Source of the DNA: a virus
Direction: 5' to 3' (one strand)
Length of the DNA stretch: 64,000 bases
IMG/VR virus record: IMGVR_UViG_3300037325_000137
Span: 14,376-78,375 of that record
The notes under the pieces are model-generated. The model made no database searches. It was not told the origin of the DNA and saw only the letters and a program-made list of their open reading frames with translations. Within the stretch, counting starts at the first letter, position 1. Each line of letters starts with the position of its first letter. This document shows, one piece after another, positions 13,401 to 60,527 of the stretch. The position numbers were made by a program, and so were the translations under genes.

Positions 13401-16400
13401 AGAACCATCTTGATTAACTTCAAATTTAATTACTGTTGGTGTAATAGGCAGTGATTTTTGCTGTAAAGCATCTTGTACTGTTCCTAAAGAAAACTCTTGT
13501 TTGCCATCTGTAAAAACAATTTCGTTACCATCAAAAAACACATCACCAACAAGTTTTTCTTTGTTTATTGGATTAACATATTCTTGTTGTGATTTCTGTA
13601 TTCTTTCTAAGAATGTTCCTTTTGCATCTTGTGGTACGTTATTCGGTAGAGCAAGACTTCTTTTAACTTTATCTTTAAATATTTCAATAGAATCAGCGTT
13701 TTCAACGTCTTCGTTCTCTTCTAAGTATGCTTTGTAACTTTCTGTATGTTCTTCTGCTATACGATTAACTTCTTCATCACGATCTTTTTTAGGATCAATT
13801 TCTCCTTCAAGTCTAGTTACGGCATCTTCTTCATTCTCTAACTCGTCAAAGTAAGTTTGATTGGAATCTGACGCTTGTGCTATTGCTGTTTGAGTATCTG
13901 TGCTTTCAGACTGTGTTTGCTCAACTATATCTGTTCCTTCTGTATTTTCTTGTGTAGGGTTTTTAAAGTCTTCCACTCTTTCACTTAAAACTCTGCTTGC
14001 TTCTTCATTGTTTTTTATGTCTATAGATATAGTTCCGTTTGCTACTCCTTCGACAAAATTATCATCTGCTATTTTTTTATAAAGATCAGAACTGTTTGTG
14101 ATAATTTCTTCTTGACCATCTATCGTAATAGTTGTTTTTACCTCTGCGGATTCTATTAACTTAGCTTTTTCAGCTTCTAAAGAAGCAAGCCTTTGTTCTA
14201 AGAAAACTGTTTCTGATACACTATCAAGAGTAAGTTCTGTTTTACTTAAAGGATTTGTAGCAGCAGATTTAATATTGGTAATTGTCAACTCTATAGCACT
14301 TGCTTGCTCACTTATTTCAACTACTCTTTTCTTATCTTGAACAGTTAAGTTATCGTAAGCTTCAAAAGTTCTTTTTATCAACTTACCATTCTCTGTGTTT
14401 ATTTCTCTTATTCTACTTTGATAGGACTGAATTATAGTTGTTTTATCTTCTTCGCTTGTTGATTCGCTTTCTGAAACCTCTTCTATTTTTCTTAGCAAAG
14501 TATTTGTTTCCTTTACGTTTTTTACTATTGTTTTTCTAGAGTTTCTATCTCCTACTATATTACCTACAATTCCTGTTAAAGATGCAGTTCCAGACATCGC
14601 TCCACCAGCAGACATCCCTCCTATTGTTGCTTCCCATGTATTATCAAGAACGCTCTTTTTAGATCCGTCTTCGTTAAAGTTTTCTCCAAAAACATATTTA
14701 TCAGTAAGGTTTGTAAAAAGTGTAATACCTAATTCTTCACCTCCCTCACCAATAGTTCCTTTTCCAAATTCAATACCGCTATTTAAAGTTTTTTTTCTAA
14801 AGCTTTCAACCATTGCTGTTTGAAGTTTTGGCTTACCTATAGATAGTGTCGTTCTTTTTAAGGCTTTTAAGTTTCTTATTTTACCAAATTGAGCTAAAAA
14901 AAGTTCTACTCCTGCTGACGCATAAGAAACAGCCATTATTTCTGTTTCGCTAGGCTCTTGTATAGACTCTAATTGAGATTTACGTTTGTTTAATGCTGGT
15001 CTGTTTTGGATTGGTAAATTTTCTTTTAAAAGATCTTTATTTATTTGGTTTAAATCTTTTTGGTTATCAATCGTTCTTTGTCTAGTAGCTAATTCGGCAC
15101 TAGCTTGTTGTGAAGCGAAAAAAGAAGCTTGACCTACGTAAGGTATCGATAATTGAACTAATGTTGGTGTTGTATCTAGAAGAGTATTTTTTACAAATTC
15201 CCCAAAATCAGCTATGCCATCTACTTGGTCTAAGGATATTTTTTCTGTTAATACGTTTTTTCTGTATTCATTAATAGTAGCTACTCTTGATAAAGCTTCT
15301 TCTCTTATTCTTATAGTGTTAGCATCACCAGTCTCCATTTTACCAGTCTCTTCATTAAAAACAGGTATGTTAACGTTAAATAATTTTTCACCAGAATACA
15401 ATAGTCCAGATCCTATTTCTGCAAAACCAGTGCTTAAAGTTGCTTTTGTTTGAGTAGCAAAATCATAAGTTTTTTTAAGTAGTTCTTTTTCTTCTTCAAA
15501 TGTCCCTAAAGAGTTTTCACTCTCCATAGATTCATCTAAAACAGTTTGAGATTGTGCTGCTAATTCTTGACGCTGCACGACTAAACTTTCTAATTCTATT
15601 TTTTTATTTTCAAAGTCTTCTTTAAAAAGCTGTTGATCCTCTATCGTAAGATCAGGGTTATCCTTTATCGATTTGTTTATTTCGTCAAGACCGTTTGACA
15701 AAGACTCAATATTAAGGTCTATATCTGCAAATTCTTTGTTGGCTTTCGATATTGTTTTGTTTGCCTTGAATATTATGTTTTGATTTACTTGCTCTTCAAT
15801 AGCAACTAACTCTAATACTTTTTTTCTTTTTTCTGGATCTAGGTCATTTAAAAACTCTGTCTTCTTTCTTTTGGTAAAAGCTGTTTCAGCACTACCACTA
15901 TCTAGTTCTTGTTGTCTTTGTCTATTTAGCTCTTTAATTTCTTTTAATCTCTCTTTTTCAAAGTTTTTGTCACTTCCGAAAATTTTTGAGAAAGAAAAGT
16001 TTTTTAAGTCATTTTCTACACTTCCTAAAAAGCCTAGTTTTTCTCTTCTATTATCTAAGGTAATTTCGCTTTTAGATTCGGTTATAGTAGACCTTTCTTC
16101 GTCACTAATATTCCTTAAATTAATAAACTCTTGATAAGAGTTCTTAGTTTCTTGATCAGTTTTAGATATTACTTCATTATATTTTTTAGCAACTAAACTT
16201 TCAGAAAAATCAGCGTCAAACTCTATAGGTCGAAAATCTAAAGGTTGACTTTTAGGTATTGCTGTTTGTGACACCGAAGACAAAGACTCCACCTCGTTTG
16301 ATATATCCGATACGCCACTTTCCACACTTGAAGTAACAGTCGTAGTTTCTTTTTTTTTTACTTCATCAACTTTTACAGGCTCTTGTGTTGGCTGTTCTAC

Positions 16401-29104: not shown

Positions 29105-29127
29105 TTCTTATTGCCTATATACAGCCG

Positions 29128-29349
29128 TTAGCACACATTAAAACTATCTAATATATATTTCGCTAATTTTAAGGCTTGCTCTTTATTTAAGTAAGTATGT
29201 GCATCTCCTTGAAAATCTCCCTCTATCTCAATCTCAAAGTCATTATCCTTGTCTACTGGGTTTATCACAAAATTATCAAGTGATAAACGTGTGCTAACAC
29301 TTGGTATAGTGCATTGCTCGGTTTCGGTTTTTTTACTATCTGTATTCAT
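29128..29349 (-). CDS. Cassette-encoded hypothetical protein
   Basis: Starts in att loop; TAA stop is the TTA of the core site. Confidence 0.6.
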   Translation of the reverse strand: MNTDSKKTETEQCTIPSVSTRLSLDNFVINPVDKDNDFEIEIEGDFQGDAHTYLNKEQALKLAKYILDSFNVC

Positions 29350-29417
29350 AATTCAAAGTTTTTGTGTAATTAATTAAGTTCGTGCTATAAGGTCGCAACG
29401 ACACCATACCATATCCG
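29128..29417. mobile_element. Solitary integron-like gene cassette
   Basis: Starts G|TTAGCACACATT; own R'' AAACGTGTGCTAAC; arms tggtatagtgcattgc / gcaacgacaccatacca; ends CCG|TTA. Confidence 0.8.
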
Positions 29418-29420
29418 TTA

Positions 29421-32189: not shown

Positions 32190-33062
32190 TTATTTTCTAA
32201 AGGAGTTTCCTTTAAATTGAATTATGTTGAACATAGAAAATAAACGATCATAAACTCTACCACCGTATCTATTTTCAAATTGTGCTAATCCAGAATCTAG
32301 ATTACCAACTTCACCATCTATAAAATTGCAGTTTATATGAGTGATTAATTTCTTGTCATATCTTCTTTCAATAATATCTTTAAACACATCGACCTTACCA
32401 TAATTACTTGCTACCTTTTCTGTAAGTACATCATCAAAACACCTTTTACCTCTTAGGTATTTAGTGTCAAATTCTTCTTTTTCATCATTTTTAGTAGATT
32501 CAAACTCATGGACTACATCATTTGCTGAAAACAATTTAAAAGTGTTTGTAGTACCTATCAAGCATTTATCCAATGCTCTCATAATAGAACTCTTGCCATT
32601 ACCGTACCCACCAATAATCAACATACCTTTTTCTAAACTTGGTTGTGATAATTCCGTTAGGTTATCGCATAGTTTAAATTTTTCAAAATTATCGGATAGA
32701 TAATAAAGCAAAGGTTCAATGTTTTTAACTGTGTCTTGATTGCTATAATTAAAATCGCAACCGTTCTGTTCTTTGTAAACCTTTAAAAAGTATTTCCATA
32801 TTTGACTTGAAGTAGGTATTATCTCCTTAAGTTCCTCTTTCGGTTCTCTTACTGATTTCAGATACTCTATGCGTTTAGATTCTGCTTCTGGACTCAATGC
32901 CCTTGTTTCATCAAACTCTTCTATAGATTTTAATGCACTACCAACCGTTTCGTTAGGAAATTCCTTAGAGAACATGTCAAGCTGGTTTTCGCTAAGGTTT
33001 AATAGATCATACTTTTTTAAAGCATTGTATTTATTAAAGCCTATTTTATTTATTTCCATCAT
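32190..33062 (-). CDS. DnaC/IstB-like P-loop ATPase (helicase loader)
   Basis: GGYGNGKS Walker A, CFDDV Walker B, RYGGRVYDRL; follows initiator gene. Confidence 0.8.
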   Translation of the reverse strand: MMEINKIGFNKYNALKKYDLLNLSENQLDMFSKEFPNETVGSALKSIEEFDETRALSPEAESKRIEYLKSVREPKEELKEIIPTSSQIWKYFLKVYKEQNGCDFNYSNQDTVKNIEPLLYYLSDNFEKFKLCDNLTELSQPSLEKGMLIIGGYGNGKSSIMRALDKCLIGTTNTFKLFSANDVVHEFESTKNDEKEEFDTKYLRGKRCFDDVLTEKVASNYGKVDVFKDIIERRYDKKLITHINCNFIDGEVGNLDSGLAQFENRYGGRVYDRLFSMFNIIQFKGNSFRK

Positions 33063-39514: not shown

Positions 39515-39943
39515 TTAATCTTTAGAAGCACTTACTTTAAGATAACCTTTACCAAATTTTATTATTGGCATAGGTAATATTTCACCGTCTGTTGTTACAT
39601 TACTATTTGTGTTTCCAGAAATAAAACTGTCGTGCATTCGTTTATATTTTGTTTCCATGTCTTTCACGTAATCTTTAGCACTCATAACTTCTGGAACACC
39701 GCTATAATCGTAAGTTTTTCTACCAGAAACCAAAGTAACCTTGAAACCTCTGTAGCCGTTAGGGTGTTCGTTTGCTTGATTAGCTATATCTTCTGCGTTT
39801 TCTGTCTCAAACTGTTTAACAGCTCCTAGAATAAGGTCTGCTGTAGTTTTAAGTTCACGTAAATCGATAAGGGCATCAAGTTCAGATAACATACCGTCAT
39901 CTACTTTTTGTACTGTGTCTTGTAATTGTTGTAATAAATTCAT
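39515..39943 (-). CDS. Hypothetical phage protein
   Basis: 142-aa ORF in recombination block. Confidence 0.55.
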   Translation of the reverse strand: MNLLQQLQDTVQKVDDGMLSELDALIDLRELKTTADLILGAVKQFETENAEDIANQANEHPNGYRGFKVTLVSGRKTYDYSGVPEVMSAKDYVKDMETKYKRMHDSFISGNTNSNVTTDGEILPMPIIKFGKGYLKVSASKD

Positions 39944-40222
39944 AGTTTTTAGTTTTAAATTTTAGTCTCTGCAATTTTCTTTTAAATCTGCCTTGGCACA
40001 TGAAGTAGAGCAAAAATCTTCTGCCGTTGGTGTACCACAATAGCTACAAGTATTATCGTGTTCAACTTCATCAAAATATTCTTGATCGTCTAAGTCTCTT
40101 GTTTCTGGCATAATTAATCTTTTCTAAATGTTGGTCTTTCTTGCTCTTGAACCCAATCCAAATAAACTTCGTTATCATTTATTTGTGAGCTTTCAAACTC
40201 TCTTTGGTCATGGTGTAACTCT

Positions 40223-40435
40223 TTACTTCCTTTCATGATCGTATAGTGATTTAAGCCTTAAATAAAAAGGCGTGAATGTTTTTTTACCGCTATTAGCTAA
40301 AAGTATTTCTAAATGAGAATCAACAAACTTTTTCTTGTTAACTACAACTGTTGCTTCGTTTAGATTAAATGGTTCTGAATCTAATTCATGAGTCTTAAAA
40401 AACTCTACCATTTCTTTGAAGTCAGTATTACTCAA
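40223..40435 (-). CDS. Hypothetical protein
   Basis: 70-aa ORF. Confidence 0.5.
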   Translation of the reverse strand: MSNTDFKEMVEFFKTHELDSEPFNLNEATVVVNKKKFVDSHLEILLANSGKKTFTPFYLRLKSLYDHERK

Positions 40436-41081
40436 CTCCTTTTTTTAAATTATCAATTCTAATAGTTATTTGATTTCTTTGATCTTCTGTTAGATCATAA
40501 TAAGATATAGAAGACTCTAATGCTTTAATATCTTTAGATACTATAACATTGTTTTGAAACGTAGTATCTGGAAGCTTTGGCTTATTAGCTACTAGTGTTG
40601 GTGCTTGTTTTGGTAGCTGGTGGTCGTTTGAGTGTGTAGCCTCTGTGTCGTCTATTTTCCCTACAGGCGTTAAGAAAGCATATAGCAAACAGTTCTTTAA
40701 AGCGTAAGTGGTTGCTTTTCCAGCTCCTTTATCTTGTGGGTCTACTCCATGTCCATATCCTGCTAAAACTTGACTCTCGCCAGAAGTGTGAAGTAATAAA
40801 TACTTAGTTGTCACCTTAGTAAATACTGATTGCTTTTGCTTAATACTAGTTACACCGTTCCAAACTTCTTCTTGATCCCATCTATCAATTTGAGTAGACT
40901 CTTCAATCCCGATTGGTAGAATACAAAGACCGTTTCTAACTAAAGCATCGTTAAAAATCTCTTTTACATCCGAGTCCTTAGTGCCATTATATGCTGAATT
41001 ACCCTTTCCTACTTTACTGTTTTTCTCCATGCCCTTAACTTCTGACATTACCGCTACAATAGCTTCTGCTAAATTTTTCAT
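40428..41081 (-). CDS. erf: ERF-family single-strand annealing protein
   Basis: LLHTSGES...DPQDKGAGKATTYALKNCL...DD motif. Confidence 0.75.
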   Translation of the reverse strand: MKNLAEAIVAVMSEVKGMEKNSKVGKGNSAYNGTKDSDVKEIFNDALVRNGLCILPIGIEESTQIDRWDQEEVWNGVTSIKQKQSVFTKVTTKYLLLHTSGESQVLAGYGHGVDPQDKGAGKATTYALKNCLLYAFLTPVGKIDDTEATHSNDHQLPKQAPTLVANKPKLPDTTFQNNVIVSKDIKALESSISYYDLTEDQRNQITIRIDNLKKGVE

Positions 41082-42337: not shown

Positions 42338-42566
42338 AAAAATCGATTATTGAATTGTGAGCCTTTAATATTTTAATTAGATTCATATAAGTGCTATTAT
42401 CTTGTGTTTCTTTTATAAATATTTCTAAGAACTCTTTGTGAGTAATAGGCTTGTAATTTATAAAGAAATCATATTTAAGACTAGGATTAGATGTGATTAT
42501 ATTTCCTATTTCTTGAATATTGTAGGATTTAAACCTGTGACCTAAATTATTTCTAATTTTATACAT
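42318..42566 (-). CDS. Hypothetical protein coupled to integrase stop
   Basis: 82-aa ORF. Confidence 0.45.
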   Translation of the reverse strand: MYKIRNNLGHRFKSYNIQEIGNIITSNPSLKYDFFINYKPITHKEFLEIFIKETQDNSTYMNLIKILKAHNSIIDFYEKQDK

Positions 42567-43375
42567 TAAATAGGCATTTGAATTTTGCTTAAATGATTTT
42601 TTGAAACGTGGGTGTAAATTTCAGTTGTCTTAGAGCTTTGATGCCCCGCAATAGATTGGATTATCCTTAAATCAGTACCTCCCTCTAGTAAGTGAGTGAA
42701 GCAACTATGCCTAAGCTGATGCATATAAGCATCTTCTTTAATATACTTTTTAATTATTTTATTACAAGATGTGGCTGAATACTGTAAAGAAGACTGACCG
42801 TTAAAAAGATATTCTTTTGGTCTATGTTTTTTAAAGTAATCCCTAAGTGTTTTTAGTAGCCCATTAGACAAAGGAACAACTCTATCTTTCTTGCCTTTAG
42901 CTTGAATTATATGAATCAATCCTCTATTTGAATCAATGTTTTCTATTTTCAGATTTATTATTTCTGAAACCCTTAATCCGCAACTATATGCTGCGGATAA
43001 AATAGCTTTATGTTTCATGTTTTTTATAGATAATATTTTTTCTGTAAGAATTTTTTTATCTATTATTTGGGGTAGCTTTTTTTCTTTTCTAGGTCTTGAA
43101 AAATCTACTTTATCGTATTTTTTATTCAGAACTTTTTTGTAAAGAAACTTGATTGAGCTTATTATTTGATTTTGTTGCGATATAGAGCTGAAATTATAAT
43201 TTTCTAAATAAGATTTAAAATCATTACTATCTAGCTTAGAAGGAGACTTTTTATTGACTCTTAAAAATTCTTCAACGTAATAACTATATATTTTTACAGT
43301 ATTTTTACTGTAGTTAAAATAGTTCAATTTTGAAATGAAATTCTGCAGAAAAGTGTGTTTAGTTTTGCTTAACAT
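42566..43375 (-). CDS. Tyrosine recombinase (integron-integrase-related, no IntI-specific insertion)
   Basis: SAM-like N-domain (YSKNTVKIY, SQQNQIISSIKFLY); catalytic set GLR, KGKKDR, HQLRHS, GH, IYTHV all intact. Confidence 0.92.
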   Translation of the reverse strand: MLSKTKHTFLQNFISKLNYFNYSKNTVKIYSYYVEEFLRVNKKSPSKLDSNDFKSYLENYNFSSISQQNQIISSIKFLYKKVLNKKYDKVDFSRPRKEKKLPQIIDKKILTEKILSIKNMKHKAILSAAYSCGLRVSEIINLKIENIDSNRGLIHIIQAKGKKDRVVPLSNGLLKTLRDYFKKHRPKEYLFNGQSSLQYSATSCNKIIKKYIKEDAYMHQLRHSCFTHLLEGGTDLRIIQSIAGHQSSKTTEIYTHVSKNHLSKIQMPI

Positions 43376-43430
43376 ATTGATTTATATTGATTTGTTAGTT
43401 ATGGTTGATATATAGTAGTTAGCAAACATT
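43374..43430 (+). other. attI-like primary recombination site
   Basis: ATATTGATTT x2 (43374-43393) then G|TTAGCAAAC core at 43418 with no partner hairpin arm; array begins here. Confidence 0.65.
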
Positions 43431-43709
43431 ATTCAAATAATCACAGTACATTTTTGCCTGTTCTTCGCTATGTATAAAGAACACTACCTCTATACCTTTG
43501 CCATCGAGTACCGCTTTACCTTGTTTTCTGCCAACTCTAAAAGGTGGTGTATATTTATTAGCATCATAACGTTTGCTAACACCAGATAAAATTAATGCCT
43601 CGTCTACTGCATTTTTAATAAGTCCTATACATTCTTCTTTTGCTAATGAAGTTCCTACCCAACTTTTTAAATTTTGTGCATGTTTATCAATTATTTGCTC
43701 TTTAGTCAT
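43419..43709 (-). CDS. Cassette 1 hypothetical protein
   Basis: Starts in att1 loop; ALILSGVSKR is encoded by the att arm; stop is the core TTA. Confidence 0.65.
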   Translation of the reverse strand: MTKEQIIDKHAQNLKSWVGTSLAKEECIGLIKNAVDEALILSGVSKRYDANKYTPPFRVGRKQGKAVLDGKGIEVVFFIHSEEQAKMYCDYLNNVC

Positions 43710-43772
43710 TGTCTATTTATTTAATTATTGTTATTATTTATCGGCACTAATCTTATCTGCGGTACGTTAGCT
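43571..43772. repeat. att site 1
   Basis: gctaacaccagataaaattaatgcc ... ggcactaatcttatctgcggtacgttagc. Confidence 0.85.
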
Positions 43773-43780
43773 ACAAGTGC

Positions 43781-44500
43781 TTAATTTAGTTGATTAAACA
43801 AAGTTGGTGCTTCAATCTCTTTTTCTTTTTTTTTCCCCACCCTTTCACTCGCAATATCAAAATAATCCTGTTGCATTTCAATTCCAATAAATCTTCTATT
43901 TAGGTTTTTACAAGCAACTCCTGTTGTACCACTACCCATAAAAGGGTCTAATACTACTTCGTTTTCATTAGTTGAGTTGTTTATATAAAATTCCATTAAT
44001 TCTATTGGTTTTTCTGTTGGGTGTACTTTACTCCCAATTATATTATTAAAAGAATGTACTGTTTTGCTTCCGCCAATGTCATTTATGTATTTAGATTTTC
44101 CTTTTCTAAAAAATATAGTGTACTCGCAATTCTTCATATAAAATTGAGAAGGTGTGCAGTTGTTTTTTTGCCAAACTAAAAAGTTTTGTATTTTAAATCC
44201 TGCTTTTTCTATCTCGTTTGCCATTTTTAGTAAATTAGAAGAGTTTACCATCACATAGTTTTGAGTTCCATCTTTTAGTATTCTAAACATTTCTGGCAAC
44301 CATTCACTAAATTTAGGAACACTCCTCATTAGTTCTCTATTTCCTTTCAATATACCTTTTGGTCTAATACTGTTTTTGCCATTACTATCACCTCCTGTTA
44401 TTATTTTATAAGGAGGGTCAGTAACTACACAATCAATACTTTCGCTTGGTAATGTTTTTAATATTTCAAGGGCATCACCCATTTTTAAATCTATATTCAT
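43781..44500 (-). CDS. Cassette 2: DNA amino-methyltransferase (N6/N4, beta class)
   Basis: VTDPPY, HPTEKP, LDPFMGSGTTG motifs. Confidence 0.93.
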   Translation of the reverse strand: MNIDLKMGDALEILKTLPSESIDCVVTDPPYKIITGGDSNGKNSIRPKGILKGNRELMRSVPKFSEWLPEMFRILKDGTQNYVMVNSSNLLKMANEIEKAGFKIQNFLVWQKNNCTPSQFYMKNCEYTIFFRKGKSKYINDIGGSKTVHSFNNIIGSKVHPTEKPIELMEFYINNSTNENEVVLDPFMGSGTTGVACKNLNRRFIGIEMQQDYFDIASERVGKKKEKEIEAPTLFNQLN

Positions 44501-44597
44501 AATGTTTTAATTTTATCAAATTAATTTGCCAACGCTCAAAAAAGAAAATAAAAAGGTTCAGTTCTATTAATTAAGTTTAGGTGTTTAAAGTCGCACC

Positions 44598-44657
44598 AGT
44601 AGGTAACACTGTATAAAAGCCATTGAAAATAACGGCTCTTATACCCATCCGTTAGCA
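44598..44657. repeat. att site 2 (short)
   Basis: taacactgtataaaagcc ... ggctcttatacccatccgtta. Confidence 0.8.
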
Positions 44658-44661
44658 ACAA

Positions 44662-44904
44662 TTAATTGCCCTGTAAGTAATTGTCTGCAATCCATTCTTT
44701 ACTTACAAACCTATTTCCTCCACCTTTTTCAAGGCTTGTTAAAAGGTCAATTAACAGTTCCCTTCGGTTGCTAACATCGTTTAACCGTAATTGCTCGGTT
44801 ACGTACTTATCTATGAAGTCTGTTAACCATTCTACCTTTTCATTTCCAGTCATATCGTTTCTTGATACAAGTTGGTTTAATTTTTCAATCTCTGTTATTT
44901 TCAT
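44662..44904 (-). CDS. Cassette 3 hypothetical protein
   Basis: Starts in att3 loop; QLRLNDVSNR is encoded by the arm. Confidence 0.6.
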   Translation of the reverse strand: MKITEIEKLNQLVSRNDMTGNEKVEWLTDFIDKYVTEQLRLNDVSNRRELLIDLLTSLEKGGGNRFVSKEWIADNYLQGN

Positions 44905-44968
44905 CTGTTCTTATTTATTAAGTTTTGTTATTAATTCACGCAACTACGGTTACACGTAGCCGTTGTAG
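44766..44968. repeat. att site 3
   Basis: aacatcgtttaaccgtaattgc ... gcaactacggttacacgtagccgtt. Confidence 0.85.
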
Positions 44969-44973
44969 TGCAT

Positions 44974-45270
44974 TTACATTACGTTTCGCTCGATACTTAT
45001 GTTTTTATCAGTAACAACTACTATAAAGCTTGTTCTTTGCACCGCCAAAGGGGCTTTTTTTTCAAGATGTTTAAGAACGTGGTTTGCACCATTATTTACT
45101 ATATCACGTCTAGTTTTTAATTGATGAAGTTTGTTTTGTACTTGCTCAATTTCGGCTTCCAATTCTTCTTTCTCTAAAGCTATATTCACTAATATATCAG
45201 CCCCTTTTATTTCCTCGCCTTGAATAAGGTCAGTAATTCCAGAGAAACTTAGGTCGTCAATTTTTTTCAT
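44974..45270 (-). CDS. Cassette 4 hypothetical coiled-coil protein
   Basis: ORF 44974-45285; likely start MKKIDD at 45270. Confidence 0.55.
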   Translation of the reverse strand: MKKIDDLSFSGITDLIQGEEIKGADILVNIALEKEELEAEIEQVQNKLHQLKTRRDIVNNGANHVLKHLEKKAPLAVQRTSFIVVVTDKNISIERNVM

Positions 45271-45281
45271 AGCAAAAAAAC

Positions 45282-45416
45282 GCACTACAACACTGTATAA
45301 AAATAATAGCCTGTTGTAGTGTCTTTTTAGTGGCTATTACTCACTTATTAATTAATTGTTTAACTTAAACTTTTCGCTTATTTATTCGGCTACTATTCTT
45401 ATACTAAACGTTGTAA
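45282..45416. repeat. att site 4
   Basis: aacactgtataaaaataatagcc ... ggctactattcttatactaaacgtt. Confidence 0.88.
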
Positions 45417-45420
45417 GTAA

Positions 45421-45654
45421 TTAAGGTTCGAGATACCTCAAAGGCACTTCTTTACTCCAAAAACCACCCTTATCAATGTTCTGTACTAACGCTCTTGGTT
45501 CGTCATAATATTCTTGTGTTTTACCATCTTGAAATATTGGATAATACACCAACATCCATCTGTCTTTTTTACCATCCATTTTATAAACGCTTTCGTTACG
45601 CTTATGATTTTTCCAAATCGGGTGGTTTAAGGCTTTTTCTAAATCTATGTTCAT
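45421..45654 (-). CDS. Cassette 5 hypothetical protein
   Basis: 77-aa ORF filling the cassette. Confidence 0.6.
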   Translation of the reverse strand: MNIDLEKALNHPIWKNHKRNESVYKMDGKKDRWMLVYYPIFQDGKTQEYYDEPRALVQNIDKGGFWSKEVPLRYLEP

Positions 45655-45671
45655 TTCTTATTTGCTTTAAC

Positions 45672-45877
45672 TACTTACAACACTATATATAATTAATATA
45701 AAAGGGGCGCAGTCCAACTATCCGTTATTCCTTTCGGGTCAAGCCTAAGCCCCCACGGAAGGAACGTTTTACAGGCTTTGGACACCTTCAATTTCACTAT
45801 CTAAAACGCTGTTGGTAAACCCACTAATTTCTGCATTTTTAACCCCTTTTAAACTAATCATATATTTTACGTTATAA
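45672..45877. repeat. att site 5
   Basis: aacactatatataattaatataaaagggg ... ccccttttaaactaatcatatattttacgtt. Confidence 0.8.
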
Positions 45878-46144
45878 ACAATACTCTTTTTGTGTATATG
45901 GTTCAGAGTAGAAGCATTTATCAGTACTATCAAATTTAATATTTCTATACCAAGTTATTTCTGTATTTGTTGTTTTTCCTGTTCTACTACTGCAATCACA
46001 ATCTTTATGACATTGGCAACTACCATTATCAATAGAAGTGTATTTTTTAGTAAATATTCTATAAGAAACACCATCTATAATTGTGATTTGCAATGCTTCC
46101 ATTTCTATATTCAATCTTTTAGGGTTTAACAATCTTTCTCGCAT
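45872..46144 (-). CDS. Cassette 6 Cys-rich protein
   Basis: CQCHKDCDC motif; likely start MRERLL (46144) or MEALQ; stop is the core TTA. Confidence 0.55.
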   Translation of the reverse strand: MRERLLNPKRLNIEMEALQITIIDGVSYRIFTKKYTSIDNGSCQCHKDCDCSSRTGKTTNTEITWYRNIKFDSTDKCFYSEPYTQKEYCL

Positions 46145-46155
46145 AACTTCCGTAC

Positions 46156-46253
46156 AGTTTATAACACAGGCTATAAATAAAAGCCCTGTCAAGGTTATTG
46201 TTGTGAATCGAACTTTGTGTTTAGGGCTTCAATTCATAGCCGAGCCGTTATCT
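46156..46253. repeat. att site 6
   Basis: aacacaggctataaataaaagccct ... agggcttcaattcatagccgagccgtt. Confidence 0.85.
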
Positions 46254-46424
46254 TTAATAATCAAACTCTTCCTCATTTAATACATCAAAGTGAATATCCT
46301 CATTTAATACATCAAAGTGAATATCCTCTATTTTGTTTTTAATAAACAGTCTTTTAATTCGATAGATAACTAAAGATAACAATGTATAAAATGCATAGCT
46401 TAATTTCGTTCTTAAATTTTTCAT
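46254..46424 (-). CDS. Cassette 7, 56-aa protein with duplicated EDIHFDVLN (not in ORF track)
   Basis: MKNLRTKLSYAFYTLLSLVIYRIKRLFIKNKIEDIHFDVLNEDIHFDVLNEEEFDY; 27-bp tandem repeat 46270-46323. Confidence 0.5.
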   Translation of the reverse strand: MKNLRTKLSYAFYTLLSLVIYRIKRLFIKNKIEDIHFDVLNEDIHFDVLNEEEFDY

Positions 46425-46511
46425 CTGTTCTGTTTTTAAAGTTTATAATTTATAATTAATTCAAAGTCTGTGGTGTTTAGGTCGCTACGCACCTTATACT
46501 AAACGTTGTGT
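46371..46511. repeat. att site 7
   Basis: aacaatgtataaaatgcatagc ... gctacgcaccttatactaaacgtt. Confidence 0.85.
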
Positions 46512-46519
46512 GTAATACT

Positions 46520-46762
46520 TTATTTAGGTTCGTTTACAGCATTACTATCTACTTTTTTCCAAGGACGTTCTATCATATTACAACCTGCTTGATACCAAGT
46601 TTGTATTTGTAATTTATTACATTTTGTACACTTTCTAAAATGAGCATATCTATTATCTTCTTTTCTACCACCGTCCCAATACTTATAAGGATGATATAAA
46701 TTAAAAAAACAAAGTAATTTTTGCAATGCTTTAGGTTTGTCTATTCTTAAAACTTTTTCCAT
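46520..46762 (-). CDS. Cassette 8 small Zn-binding-like protein
   Basis: LLCFFNLYH ... RKCTKC motif. Confidence 0.6.
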   Translation of the reverse strand: MEKVLRIDKPKALQKLLCFFNLYHPYKYWDGGRKEDNRYAHFRKCTKCNKLQIQTWYQAGCNMIERPWKKVDSNAVNEPK

Positions 46763-46793
46763 TTTAATAAAGTTTGTGGCTTAAATTCCGTAT

Positions 46794-46892
46794 TACACAC
46801 AACAATGTATATAGTTTATAAGCCAATTAATATTTGTTTTTAATTTGTAAATTTCTGATATGGCTTACAAAACCATATACTCAACGTTAGGC
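46794..46892. repeat. att site 8
   Basis: aacaatgtatatagtttataagcca ... tggcttacaaaaccatatactcaacgtt. Confidence 0.88.
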
Positions 46893-46896
46893 ACAA

Positions 46897-47202
46897 TTAA
46901 GGTTTGCGTCCTAATAACTTACTTAGCTTCATCCCCAACCACTCAGGGCAAGGTATAGCTACTACCCATCTTAAATAAGGCAATATACCTACAAAACCAA
47001 TCCCCCAATGCTCTGTTGCAACTATTGAAACTTCAAAGCTAAATGCGTCTAAAGTCCAAAATGTAAATATTAGCCATCTAAAACTAAAACTACTTGTATT
47101 GTGTTCGTCTGCTTTCCTTATTTCTATTAAGGGTATTAATGGAAATACATTTTTGTTGTACCATTTTTCTGTTCTCATTCTTCCTGATGCTGTTTGTGAC
47201 AT
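46897..47202 (-). CDS. Cassette 9 hypothetical Trp/Phe-rich protein
   Basis: 101-aa ORF filling the cassette. Confidence 0.6.
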   Translation of the reverse strand: MSQTASGRMRTEKWYNKNVFPLIPLIEIRKADEHNTSSFSFRWLIFTFWTLDAFSFEVSIVATEHWGIGFVGILPYLRWVVAIPCPEWLGMKLSKLLGRKP

Positions 47203-47209
47203 AATTAAA

Positions 47210-47306
47210 AGTGCCTAACAATAGCTAAAGTTAATAGCCTCAATAGGTCTTGTTATAATTTGATGGTTAGTATTAAAGGCTACTAACCTTAGCCTAGACG
47301 TTATGA
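47210..47306. repeat. att site 9
   Basis: aacaatagctaaagttaatagcct ... aggctactaaccttagcctagacgtt. Confidence 0.88.
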
Positions 47307-47459
47307 TGCAATTAAAATTTTAAGCATCTCGTTTAACTTCCCTACACATTGAGCATAGTATCGTTCATTATCTTCCTGTTTCATTATTTTAGCTACTTCA
47401 TAAAGGTCTGTATAAATACCAATTTTCTTTATTACAATACTTTTTAGTTCATCCATCAT
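47301..47459 (-). CDS. Cassette 10 small helical protein
   Basis: ORF 47301-47483; likely start MMDELK; stop is the core TTA. Confidence 0.5.
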   Translation of the reverse strand: MMDELKSIVIKKIGIYTDLYEVAKIMKQEDNERYYAQCVGKLNEMLKILIAS

Positions 47460-47471
47460 TAAAATTTTAAA

Positions 47472-47566
47472 AGCACATAACAATGTATAAAATTAATGCG
47501 CTATGATAATTAGTGTTAAATTTTTAAGTATGTGGTTAGCGCACTAATCTTATACTAACTGCAATG
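47472..47566. repeat. att site 10 (GTT core missing)
   Basis: aacaatgtataaaattaatgcgcta ... tagcgcactaatcttatactaact, then gcaatg. Confidence 0.75.
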
Positions 47567-47569
47567 TTG

Positions 47570-47818
47570 CTATTTAAAGTTTTGCCTAAACGGCTTGTTA
47601 CATTTTGGACAAGAAGTGCCTAAATACAAGCCTTTGATTATCGGTTCGCAACACTGTTCGCTCTGCCTTACAACAACGGGTATAGAAAATAATTCAGAAG
47701 GCATCAGTCTTTCTATCACGTCTATTGCACTCCATATTTCTCTTGATTCATAACTGTGATGTATTGAGTCAAAGTGTTCTGCTCTTTTTTCTAGTGTTTT
47801 AATAACGTCTGCTTTCAT
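47570..47818 (-). CDS. Cassette 11 protein with C-terminal CPKC zinc ribbon
   Basis: Starts in att11 loop; ELFSIPVVVRQ is encoded by the arm. Confidence 0.6.
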   Translation of the reverse strand: MKADVIKTLEKRAEHFDSIHHSYESREIWSAIDVIERLMPSELFSIPVVVRQSEQCCEPIIKGLYLGTSCPKCNKPFRQNFK

Positions 47819-47878
47819 CTTTTAAGTTTTTGCGTTTTAAATCCTCCTAAATTAAATTCCATACCCAAACCGTTAGCA
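47665..47878. repeat. att site 11
   Basis: aacaacgggtatagaaaataatt ... aattaaattccatacccaaaccgtt. Confidence 0.75.
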
Positions 47879-47998
47879 TTAATACTCAGTACCTAAGTAT
47901 TCTACTAAATAAGGGTAGTCCCAACTTTTACTGCTACTGTAATACATTTTCCAGTAACCTCTATTATTCTTTATTATTTCAGTCCATTTACTTGTCAT
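47879..47998 (-). CDS. Cassette 12, 39-aa aromatic-rich peptide (not in ORF track)
   Basis: MTSKWTEIIKNNRGYWKMYYSSSKSWDYPYLVEYLGTEY fills the cassette. Confidence 0.5.
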   Translation of the reverse strand: MTSKWTEIIKNNRGYWKMYYSSSKSWDYPYLVEYLGTEY

Positions 47999-48022
47999 AG
48001 TTTCTATTTTTTAAGTCCGTAC

Positions 48023-48078
48023 TAATGCTAACAATATGTAAAAAACATTAAAACGATGTGTTATACTAGACGTTAGCA
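48023..48078. repeat. att site 12 (minimal, ~56 bp)
   Basis: gctaacaatatgtaaaaaacat ... atgtgttatactagacgttagc. Confidence 0.7.
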
Positions 48079-48357
48079 AACATTTATGTTGTTGCTATCT
48101 ATAAAGCTTTTAGGATTTCCGCAACCTATTAAAAACTCTGCTCCGTTACCTAATTTAAAGTAACATCTATCCCAATCATTGCTTCTATCGAAAGTAAAAT
48201 TTTCACCTTTTTTTATGGTATAATAACACCCTTTCCAACTCAAATTCTCCCTTCTATTGTTAGGTATATTACCCACATCAGTGGCTTCTATGGGTGTGCT
48301 ACCATACCTACCTTTATCAATAAAAACTCTAATATCTTCTGTTGCTTGTAAATTCAT
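48073..48357 (-). CDS. Cassette 13 hypothetical protein
   Basis: ORF 48073-48378; likely start MNLQAT; ends NVC* on the core site. Confidence 0.6.
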   Translation of the reverse strand: MNLQATEDIRVFIDKGRYGSTPIEATDVGNIPNNRRENLSWKGCYYTIKKGENFTFDRSNDWDRCYFKLGNGAEFLIGCGNPKSFIDSNNINVC

Positions 48358-48366
48358 AATTAAACG

Positions 48367-48463
48367 ATTTGCTAACACAACCTATACACCATAAAGCAAT
48401 ATAGTATTGTGCTAATATTAAACATTGTGCTACGCTTTACGGTGCATAGCTTTACCGTTGGCG
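48367..48463. repeat. att site 13
   Basis: aacacaacctatacaccataaagc ... gctttacggtgcatagctttaccgtt. Confidence 0.85.
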
Positions 48464-48469
48464 GTAATA

Positions 48470-48820
48470 CTACATTAGTACCTTATCCATCATTTCATTT
48501 ATGTTCTCCGCAATTTTTTCATCATAACCTCTATTGTAAAATTCATCGCCAGTAGTCAAATGATAAGTACCTATGTTATCCAAATACTGTTTCATTTTTT
48601 CATAAGGTTCAGTATTTTCATACCCTATCAAATTAAGATAAGACCAATAACATTTAATAGAAAATTGCTCTGTGTTTGTTCCTCTATCTGTTCTTTTTTC
48701 GTTTTGTCTTTGTATCCATAAGGCTTGTTCTTTCTTGTAGTCTGTGTACTTTAAAGCCGTACTACTGCCAACAAAAAATATAGCAAATGCTTTTCGTAAT
48801 CTTTGGGTAAATTGTTTCAT
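48470..48820 (-). CDS. Cassette 14 hypothetical protein
   Basis: Starts in att14 loop; AFAIFFVGSS is encoded by the arm. Confidence 0.6.
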   Translation of the reverse strand: MKQFTQRLRKAFAIFFVGSSTALKYTDYKKEQALWIQRQNEKRTDRGTNTEQFSIKCYWSYLNLIGYENTEPYEKMKQYLDNIGTYHLTTGDEFYNRGYDEKIAENINEMMDKVLM

Positions 48821-48886
48821 ACTTCTAATTTTTAGTTCATTTAAGTTAGAGTGTTGTTGGCACTTGCCATCTTCAAACCGTTAGCC
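48763..48886. repeat. att site 14
   Basis: aacaaaaaatatagcaaatgc ... gcacttgccatcttcaaaccgtt. Confidence 0.8.
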
Positions 48887-49147
48887 ACCATTTGAAAAAC
48901 CGCACTCATCCAAGAAGCTTTGTCCAACAGGAGAACCTAACCATTGAATTAAGTTTACGCAAATATCTTCTTCTTTTTCGGACAACCACTCTTTAGGTTG
49001 CGTTTGTCTATCATTAGACCACCCATTCACAATAGCACTTAGGCTTTTTCTGGCAGAACCATCATGATTGAACATTTTAATAAATTTATCGTGAAATTCT
49101 TTTTCTTTAGGATTGTCATTAAATCTGTATTCTTTATTGCCTTTCAT
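48881..49147 (-). CDS. Cassette 15 hypothetical protein
   Basis: IQWLGSPVGQSFL motif; stop is the core TTA. Confidence 0.65.
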   Translation of the reverse strand: MKGNKEYRFNDNPKEKEFHDKFIKMFNHDGSARKSLSAIVNGWSNDRQTQPKEWLSEKEEDICVNLIQWLGSPVGQSFLDECGFSNGG

Positions 49148-49155
49148 AGTAAAAC

Positions 49156-49281
49156 GGTGGCTAACAATGTATATAGCAAATAGCCTTATTAGCCATTTTA
49201 GAAACTACTTGCTTGTTTATAATTTATTTACTTTTTACTTAATTCTGTGATAGGCTACTTGCCATATACTAAACATTGTAG
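49156..49281. repeat. att site 15 (core ATT instead of GTT)
   Basis: aacaatgtatatagcaaatagcct ... aggctacttgccatatactaaacatt. Confidence 0.85.
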
Positions 49282-49302
49282 TGCATTAAAACGTTCGATT
49301 CG

Positions 49303-49693
49303 CCACAACAACACGCTATATAAATAATGCTTGGTTTCGTGCTGTAATCAAAGTTTAGCGCTTTTAATGCCATAATTAAATATTTTTAAAAACCCATTCA
49401 CCATTTAGTTTCCAAGTTTCTTTATCATAGTAAACTTCTACTACTATATTTTGCATTTTATTATGGCAACGTAAATTTCCACAAGAGAAGTCTACTGCTT
49501 CAATACCTAATTCATCATTTACATCAATAAAATCTTGGTTTTTACTCGTTGCTATCAACCTTACTGGGTATTCTGCTTTCTTTTTTAATACTTCTTTTAA
49601 GTTCATTTTTAAAAATATTTAATTATTAGTTCTGTGTTTAATTCAAAGTTTCGTTCATTTAATGTCGCACTATTCATATAGCAACAGTTACCC
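49303..49693. repeat. att site 16 (gene inside loop)
   Basis: aacacgctatataaataatgc ... gcactattcatatagcaacagtt. Confidence 0.75.
49376..49606 (-). CDS. Hypothetical protein inside att16 loop
   Basis: 76 aa, bracketed by a perfect 21-bp inverted repeat. Confidence 0.6.
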   Translation of the reverse strand: MNLKEVLKKKAEYPVRLIATSKNQDFIDVNDELGIEAVDFSCGNLRCHNKMQNIVVEVYYDKETWKLNGEWVFKNI

Positions 49694-49753
49694 TTAATAC
49701 TAGGTTCGTGCTTTCTCGGTTGTTATTGTTTGTTCAGTCTTTATCCTTATTTA

Positions 49754-50224
49754 TTATATTAAATTGTTAGCGTGATGTGACTTAGTGTAAATACCACCAG
49801 CTCTTATGTATTCTATCGCTGTATTCATAGAACTAGTTGTGTCTGTGTCTTCGTTAACGATCATATACCCATCTTCATTAGAATGTTCAATAGAGAATTT
49901 AAAGTTTACCGATTTTTCCATGTCAATAGCTAAATTTTTTAGCTTTGTCTCAAATGTTTCTCTAATAGTTTCTAAAGCATTTATACCTCTTTCTATTCTT
50001 CTCATGTGTATGTTATGTCTTTCTTCCCAAAGTTCTTTTAGGATTTGTTGATTTTGATAATTAGCTAGATTACTTGATTCCCACTTACTGAAACCTTTAT
50101 CGTCGATGATCTTATAACTGGATCTTATGGAGACAATATTATTTCTTGACAGAGCCAGTTTCTTTTGAGTTTCTGTAAGTGCATTAAAAGCCTTTGACCT
50201 CTGTATTTCTTTTTTTGCTATCAT
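49754..50224 (-). CDS. Hypothetical early protein
   Basis: 156-aa ORF. Confidence 0.5.
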   Translation of the reverse strand: MIAKKEIQRSKAFNALTETQKKLALSRNNIVSIRSSYKIIDDKGFSKWESSNLANYQNQQILKELWEERHNIHMRRIERGINALETIRETFETKLKNLAIDMEKSVNFKFSIEHSNEDGYMIVNEDTDTTSSMNTAIEYIRAGGIYTKSHHANNLI

Positions 50225-60313: not shown

Positions 60314-60374
60314 ATGGCTTACAACGTACCGCAGATAAGATTAGTTGCGTGAATAATAACTTAAATTAATAGAA

Positions 60375-60527
60375 ATGAAAAACAGAATAATTGAAATATG
60401 TGAGTTAGGAAAACCACAAAGTATAATTCATAGAGAAAATGAACCGATTACAGAACTAATCAAAACCACTGACTTAGTAGAAGAACTTAACAAGCAATTA
60501 ATTTTATCTGGTGTTGTAGCCAGTTAA
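60375..60527 (+). CDS. 50-aa protein encoded in att loop and arm (not in ORF track)
   Basis: MKNRIIEICELGKPQ...NKQLILSGVVAS. Confidence 0.5.
   Translation: MKNRIIEICELGKPQSIIHRENEPITELIKTTDLVEELNKQLILSGVVAS

Follow-up and report, generated by a model that had tools for sequence, protein, structure and literature searches.

G.T wobble pairs at fixed positions mark one strand of the hairpin sites in an integron-like phage cassette array

How does a recombinase choose between two nearly identical, complementary hairpins? This question is central to integron mechanics, and it is raised by a phage locus in which small − strand genes are interspersed with imperfect hairpins (43.4–49.7 kb) and a tyrosine recombinase gene adjoins them. 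The locus lies in a 64,000-nt stretch of DNA (the window, numbered from its first base) that comprises bases 14376–78375 of the 78,375-bp IMG/VR virus record IMGVR_UViG_3300037325_000137. The record has direct terminal repeats and is rated complete, and portal, terminase and virion proteins are encoded in the window. All results presented here are computational. Our reading, to which we give a probability of roughly 0.68, is that the 16 hairpins are attC-type sites of an integron-like phage system, and that conserved G.T wobbles, which form part of a consensus shared by the arms of the sites, mark the strand that serves as substrate.

On the + strand, each of the 16 sites has AAC as its left boundary and GTT (ATT in S15) as its right one, and its left arm was aligned to the reverse complement of its right arm. 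All have the layout of attC sites, i.e. an imperfect inverted repeat (R″-L″...L′-R′) with conserved AAC/GTT. Stem positions are given as d, counted from GTT on the 3′ arm in the − strand reading. The recombinase gene, the attI-like site beside it and the sites S1–S16 are listed here, with an arrow marking the crossover point in a motif.

42566–43375, − strand: tyrosine recombinase of 269 aa, XerA/IntI-like, without the IntI-specific insertion (Pfam Phage_integrase and SAM_4)
43390–43420, − strand: attI-like site; the − strand reads AA↓C-TACTATATATCAACC, and GTT lies at 43418–43420 on the + strand
43578–43768, − strand: S1, with a 143-nt loop; G.T at d=10 and d=15
44605–44653, − strand: S2, short; G.T at d=10 and d=15
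44773–44964, − strand: S3; G.T at d=15, G.A at d=6; cargo contigs of other samples start at its GTT (44962)
45289–45412, − strand: S4; G.T at d=10 and d=15; the DNA fold has an unbroken stem on the − strand and an interrupted one on the + strand
45679–45873, − strand: S5; G.T at d=10 and d=15; cargo contigs start at 45869, beside GTT 45871–45873
46163–46249, − strand: S6; G.T at d=10 and d=15, T.T at d=14
46378–46507, − strand: S7; G.T at d=10, 11 and 15; contig boundary at 46501, beside GTT 46505–46507
46801–46888, − strand: S8, with one bulged base; G.T at d=10, and a second G.T beyond the 1-nt bulge
47217–47302, − strand: S9; G.T at d=10 and d=15; contigs of three runs diverge behind 47304, after GTT 47300–47302
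47479–47568, − strand: S10, with a long spacer; G.T at d=10 and d=15
47675–47874, − strand: S11, in a different register; G.T at d=7 and d=21, plus other mismatches
48030–48074, − strand: S12, short class, degenerate; no stem G.T; cargo contigs start at 48070, beside GTT 48072–48074
48374–48459, − strand: S13; G.T at d=10 and d=15; − fold 6.2 kcal/mol more stable than the + fold
48770–48882, − strand: S14; G.T at d=10 and d=15, G.A at d=7
49163–49277, − strand: S15, in which ATT replaces GTT; G.T at d=10 and d=15
49310–49689, − strand: S16, with a loop of about 300 nt that holds an open reading frame (ORF); G.T at d=10 and d=15

Read on the − strand, the stem mismatches of these curated sites consist of 29 G.T, five T.T, two G.A and one each of T.G, C.T and G.G, with not a single A.C (binomial p=4e-9 for G.T versus its mirror A.C; p=1e-23 against 1/12 per mismatch type). 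G.T occurs at d=10 in 13/16 sites and at d=15 in 13/16, and 12/16 have both, with four paired bases in between. These four pairs vary among the sites (ATTA, AATA, GTTA, CACC, GCAA and others), yet they remain complementary. A sequence-only reading of the window had described such A-versus-G differences between the arms (in its att1, 4, 9, 10, 13, 15 and 16), claiming two mismatches four paired bases apart in most sites, covarying neighbours, and A.C on the top strand with G.T on the bottom strand. Every arm pair that it quoted is present in the sequence, and the counts bear out the spacing, the covariation and the polarity.

The same reading had placed a third C.A mismatch at position 11 of the R box in the circle. 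The start of a cassette (the tail past the preceding GTT) pairs with the left box of that same cassette over 10–14 bp in at least 13 of the 16 cassettes, and position 11 of this R box is indeed C.A on the + strand (T.G on the −) in 11 of the 16, after ten paired positions and followed by three more pairs. A fourth element lies beside the cut site, where a G follows AAC and a T precedes GTT on the same strand (AAC-G...T-GTT). The central spacer is asymmetric (5–6 nt versus 1–3 nt), the AAC arm contributing the larger number of bases.

By length, the sites form three classes of about 46, 86 and 123 nt. Members of the short class (e.g. L019:4005–4050 and L042:2873–2918 in viral loci; S2 and S12 in the window) are conserved in their loop, TCGTTTTAATG, and their stem of 11 bp lacks the wobbles.

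The code recurs outside the window. It is present in about 300 non-identical sites that accompany homologous integrases at 80 viral and 80 bacterial loci, as found in a survey for which the site search treated G.T and A.C equally, both as mismatches. Recombinase homologues with 55–67% identity are encoded on at least 80 viral contigs, nearly all with site arrays upstream of the gene, and distant homologues (40–52%) are found in bacterial genomes, mostly of Bacteroidota, with arrays downstream of the gene. On the integrase-sense strand, 238 non-identical viral sites contain 284 G.T versus 17 A.C, and in 66 bacterial sites the mismatch polarity relative to the integrase gene is opposite to the viral one. 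When sites are oriented by their longer 5′ spacer alone, both sets agree: 280 of 430 viral and 59 of 99 bacterial mismatches pair a G of the 5′ arm with a T of the 3′ arm.

The positions are conserved as well. At d=15, G.T is present in 175/204 viral and 35/45 bacterial sites (and in 163 of the 177 viral sites that are 56–140 nt long). A second G.T lies at d=10 or d=12 (62 and 35 of the 204 viral sites, respectively), and G.T is almost absent from other positions. R-box position 11 is T.G in 107/135 viral and 17/23 bacterial cassettes, and AAC-G...T-GTT is found in 240/274 viral and 52/71 bacterial sites. The partner of the T at d=15 is G and almost never T or C, which indicates selection on the pair itself and not merely on an unpaired T. 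At stem positions other than the wobble ones, e.g. 11, 13 and 17–21, all four Watson–Crick pairs occur. Transitions are the commonest substitutions and the sites are related, so mutational bias or shared ancestry might be invoked without any selection. This is the least probable of the explanations that we consider: the mirror class is missing in the window (29:0) and rare across the viral sites (284:17), the fixed positions contradict it, and the neighbouring pairs have cycled through all four Watson–Crick types while G.T stayed.

Do the arms fold? RNAalifold, applied to 52 non-redundant sites some 123 nt long, gives an indel-free helix of 19 bp; compensatory changes are seen in 18 pairs, and one column pair is G.U in 51/52. 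The helix is 93.6% paired, versus 56% in shuffles and 38–47% with the partners slid, and its covariation score is 0.853, versus 0.188 in shuffles. These changes support the proposal, made in the sequence-only reading, that the substrate is a folded single strand. They also bear on the duplex simple-site model, an older model for 59-base elements, by which the A/G differences would tell a left from a right 'simple site' in double-stranded DNA, only one of them being active, without any folding. The right half of the sites (L′-spacer-R′) is attI-like, as this model would have it. However, any base difference would do for such a purpose, whereas at four positions it is always one that gives G.T on the same strand, and the strong covariation of the arms would have no role in a duplex. 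We therefore consider discrimination within the duplex improbable.

A role of the hairpins in the transcript (in termination, processing or stabilisation), with G.U pairs simply being tolerated, could be imagined from the phage loci, where cassette ORFs lie on the G.T strand by 85:1 and mRNAs would thus carry G.U hairpins. This idea is contradicted by the bacterial loci, where the ORFs lie on the A.C strand by 17:0, and we regard it as highly improbable. Wobble polarity tracks the position of the integrase and the asymmetry of the spacer, i.e. the geometry of the site, and not transcription.

In the bacterial relatives (L082–L161, e.g. L115:9653–19481 and L121:9662–15229), the integrase ORF is about 380 aa long, has an N-terminal extension and points towards the array, and the cassette ORFs, as seen in L115 and L121, are encoded on the A.C strand, with a site behind each of them. 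This arrangement suggests a bacterial cassette pool separate from that of the phages. A locus of Desulfitobacterium (L125) has the same mismatch polarity. Among isolated phages, no close integrase was found (best 37–39% identity), and none matches one of the sites by blastn.

Which of the two strands is the substrate? As AAC...GTT is read from both strands of a hairpin site, this has to be decided from where the cassette border lies. In integrase-sense orientation, homology between related arrays begins within 9 nt of the 5′ AAC in 33/37 cases. One cassette (a hairpin and its downstream ORF, ending in ATAAC) lies beside attI in L019 and within the array in L045, and in two pairs of loci, L018/L019 and L051/L063, a shared ORF has a different hairpin after it in each locus. 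The integrase-gene block starts at AAC↓TAnnWTATATCAAC in many loci. This conserved, hairpin-free motif next to the integrase gene is the attI-like site: it precedes the gene in related loci too, with a homology breakpoint at its AAC, and in the window it has no hairpin on the integrase side, while the R′ tail that follows it pairs with the left box of S1.

Contigs of other salt-lake metagenomes that carry the cargo of four cassettes start at the right-hand GTT of the site in front, to within 0–4 nt (44962, 45869, 46501 and 48070), and three of these four sets (borders at S3, S5, S7 and S12) extend into the next hairpin. Here, only pieces running from cargo to site were counted, many joints in the arms common to cassettes being ambiguous and uncovered stretches uninformative. 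The cassette unit is bounded at G↓TT, with an R″ complementary to its own cassette start, and borders at the right-hand GTT place the crossover at G↓TT on the + strand, i.e. at AA↓C, the 5′ end of the − fold. Tyrosine recombinases cut 5′-arm↓spacer-3′, as IntI does on attC bottom strands (PMC5027507). With this polarity, the − strand, which carries the G.T pairs, would be the strand that is cut, and from borders and polarity together we infer recombination of the folded − strand. This supports the claim of the sequence-only reading that the G.T (bottom) strand is the substrate.

An initial assignment of the + strand as the classical bottom strand, based on ORF direction and arm length, was rejected, since the location of attI, the borders of the cassettes and the bacterial relatives all point the other way.

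The att arms reach a summed contig depth of 100–550 in the other salt-lake metagenomes, and most cargo stretches are near zero (window 43300–49800), so the site family must be very common in the salt-lake community and must accompany many cargos besides those of the window. In one contig, 46898 is joined to 47211, so that S8 adjoins S9 without the 101-aa ORF.

What might the wobbles do for the folded strand? With DNA energy parameters, − folds are more stable than + folds by 2.3 kcal/mol on average, in 14/16 sites (Wilcoxon p=0.0008). This gain is near the 2.12 kcal/mol reported for classical attC bottom strands (PMC5027507). G.T is moreover alone among the non-Watson–Crick pairs in being held together on one strand but not on the other, and short-class sites do without stem wobbles. 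All this would agree with a purely energetic role, in which the wobbles favour the folding of one strand (or keep the duplex palindrome imperfect) and are not read by a protein, the strand being chosen by folding together with the asymmetric spacer. However, an energetic bias needs no fixed positions, yet d=15, d=10/12 and R-box position 11 are fixed in hundreds of diverged sites, and R position 11 and d=15 occupy the same place in the consensus common to both arms. A role through energy alone thus seems unlikely to us, though worth keeping in view.

The integrase itself is XerA-like. Its best NCBIfam match is XerA/integron integrase (NF040815; 180.5 bits, under the cut-off of 220), and NCBI names its protein family 'site-specific tyrosine recombinase/integron integrase'. 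Profile TIGR02249 (cut-off 265) matches in two pieces, profile 1–181 (107 bits) and 253–313 (57 bits), with profile 182–252 missing; in the comparison with IntI4, query residues 180–212 occupy the place of IntI4 180–260, about 48 residues fewer. By both comparisons, the IntI-specific insertion (the I2 region, between patches II and III) is absent. Archaeal XerA (NF040815; PDB 4A8E, 5HXY), which acts on dif, is the best sequence match and is colinear with the integrase over 256 residues. The phage integrase differs from it: its score is under the family cut-off, and instead of one duplex dif, its gene has a 16-site hairpin array and an attI-like site beside it. In the class sampled, a search of genomes for IntI found none, and the plasmid matches were XerA-like genes or a broken gene.

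That a Xer-type recombinase can act on a hairpin is known from CTX phage, where XerCD acts on an attP hairpin formed by one strand of the phage DNA and exchanges a single strand. There, in contrast to the system described here, one integration site in the host dif is used by host recombinases, and there is no cassette array; we know of no wobble code in CTX attP. Going by the literature and by attCaadA7, classical attC sites are not known to have such wobbles either.

In other respects, the sites resemble classical attC sites and their use by IntI (VCR with VchIntIA, 2A3V; attCaadA7). Both have an imperfect AAC...GTT hairpin in which R and L boxes flank an unpaired central spacer, a loop of variable length with size classes, cassette-specific R″/R′ pairing, crossover at G↓TT, attI beside the integrase, and a bottom strand that is more stable by about 2 kcal/mol (PMC5027507, PMC2727003). 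Classical attC sites have extrahelical bases (consensus T-N6-G, PMC3053210), which are held by IntI (PMC5027507, PMC3053210, PMC2727003), whereas in the phage sites there are G.T wobbles instead (T...T, four or two pairs apart), with an extra wobble within a long R box (~14 bp) and an asymmetric spacer. The phage stems are ungapped, S8 being the only bulged one in the window, and the integrase is without the insertion that holds the extrahelical bases in VchIntIA. The wobble Ts lie 10, 12 and 15 nt from GTT, and classical bulged bases on the same arm lie at 9, 13 and 16–17 (by our conversion of the published numbering). The idea from the sequence-only reading that the wobbles may replace the extrahelical bases accords with the bulge-free stems and the missing insertion; the replacement itself keeps its 'may'.

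All cassette ORFs of the window are directed towards the integrase, i.e. antisense to the classical orientation, in which promoterless genes point away from attI and are expressed from Pc. The system is thus integron-like, yet it departs from integrons in three defining traits: the IntI insertion, the extrahelical bases and the orientation of the cargo genes. Several of the cassette ORFs (43419–43709, 44662–44904, 47570–47818, 48470–48820 and 49376–49606) begin in the long loop of a site and continue through its arm and R box; the loop of S16 contains an entire 76-aa ORF, and the core GTTA frequently provides the − strand stop codon.

How such a system may work can be pictured as follows. On a 78-kb phage, a XerA-like tyrosine recombinase would act together with an attI-like site and a cassette array. 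An unbroken fold would be possible for the − strand only, the strand of the integrase and the cassette genes. It would comprise an R-box helix of about 14 bp, formed with the cassette's own start and carrying the T.G wobble at position 11; a C.G pair at the cut site, then G..T; the asymmetric central spacer, with 5–6 nt facing 1–3 nt; and an L stem of 17–19 bp in which G.T pairs sit at d=15 and at d=10 (or, in certain relatives, d=12). Each of these wobble positions is an A.C mismatch when read on the + strand. The recombinase would bind the folded − strand, cut at AA↓C and then swap this one strand with attI or a second folded site, in the manner of IntI on attC bottom strands.

The wobbles may have two roles in this scheme: they would make folding strand-specific, and they would be part of the arm sequence that is read by each recombinase monomer. 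From base-pair tables of the stem and R-box positions across the relatives, we derived an arm consensus by which the R arm (positions 12 to 2) and the L arm (the 3′ arm, 16 to 6) would share 5′-A-T-T-N4-A-T-A-N↓ on the strand running towards the spacer. The first T of this consensus would be the wobble T, ten nt from the real or the pseudo cut, given a central region of 6 nt. Thereby, the outer end of each monomer's arm would present it with a T.G wobble, and the wobble at 10 or 12 would be peculiar to the L arm. In its strongest form, this proposal makes the G.T wobbles a protein-read strand-identity code: a monomer of the XerA-like integrase would recognise T.G at the tenth base pair of the arm on folded single-stranded DNA, in place of extrahelical bases and the IntI insertion, in a large unrecognised family in phages, Bacteroidota and some Firmicutes. 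We advance this form tentatively, giving it slightly less than even odds.

Several points weigh against taking the wobbles as marks of the substrate strand. The strand that is cut is deduced from the polarity of tyrosine recombinases. The gain in stability is modest with DNA energy parameters, and two of the 16 sites show none. The short class (~46 nt), S11 and S12 are without the stem wobbles, which are thus not indispensable. The asymmetric spacer alone could set the choice of strand and is a second candidate determinant. The conserved G after AAC and T before GTT are indistinguishable from plain sequence conservation, and the shared arm consensus presumes a 6-nt central region that is not confirmed on attI, with its TA repeats.

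Two solitary elements of the window lie apart from the array:

29127–29419, − strand: solitary cassette with the same site grammar; GTTAGCACAC-A-TT pairs with AA-C-GTGTGCTAAC, with C.A at R-box position 11 and A/G at both usual stem positions
60323–60515, + strand: solitary site in the opposite orientation; G.T on the + strand, AAC-G...T-GTT, a stem nearly identical to that of S1, and complementary R boxes of its own (ACAAC/GTTGT)

The first lies 14 kb from the array, and its left flank, TATATACAGCC-GTT, is attI-like. Around the second, genes run on the + strand, so that phage genes again lie on the G.T strand.

An isolated and published phage carries the same sites. Clusters of attC sites lacking integron-integrases (CALINs) were reported in phages, including Polaribacter phage P12002L (Qi et al. 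2023, PMC9892861), and we find in this phage at least six sites of the class described here, with the same two mismatches five positions apart, beside DNA methyltransferase genes and small genes:

14503–14624, 32492–32924 and 39516–40948 of P12002L (L167): sites of this class, in an orientation that follows the gene strand

P12002L differs from the phage of the window in that it has no integrase of this family. One of its sites, at least six in number, was recognised previously: the published P12002L_attC1 is a member of the short class, and attC2 is not of this class. In that study, the sites were treated as ordinary attC (HattCI/IntegronFinder), two were listed, and neither an integrase nor wobbles were mentioned; IntI1 recombined P12002L_attC2 and not attC1 (PMC9892861), the latter being a single negative that is evidence neither way. 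A methyltransferase is also present in the window, where cassette 43781–44500 encodes an N6/N4 DNA methyltransferase (Pfam PF01555, E=2e-41), and the presence of such genes beside the sites in both phages points to anti-restriction cargo.

In the literature searched (with subscription journals outside its coverage), no integron-like system with a Xer-like integrase is described for phages or Bacteroidota, and no wobble pairs are described for attC, none of the papers retrieved on this subject containing both 'attC' and 'wobble'; the published attC design and mutation studies that we examined do not mention mismatches. IntegronFinder 2.0 reported almost no integrons in Bacteroidetes (PMC9024848).

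The answer given so far to the question of strand choice is that bulged bases are held by an insertion specific to IntI. Here, a related system is without both, and its strand asymmetry is even stricter, by means of wobble pairs. It would be a second, independent solution to strand choice, testable with simple oligonucleotides. Its signature (AAC-G, G.T at fixed distances, T-GTT) finds cassette arrays that current integron finders largely miss. Finally, because the genes of phage arrays lie on the strand opposite to those of bacterial arrays, the orientation of the code separates a phage pool, with methyltransferases and many unknown small genes, from a bacterial one.

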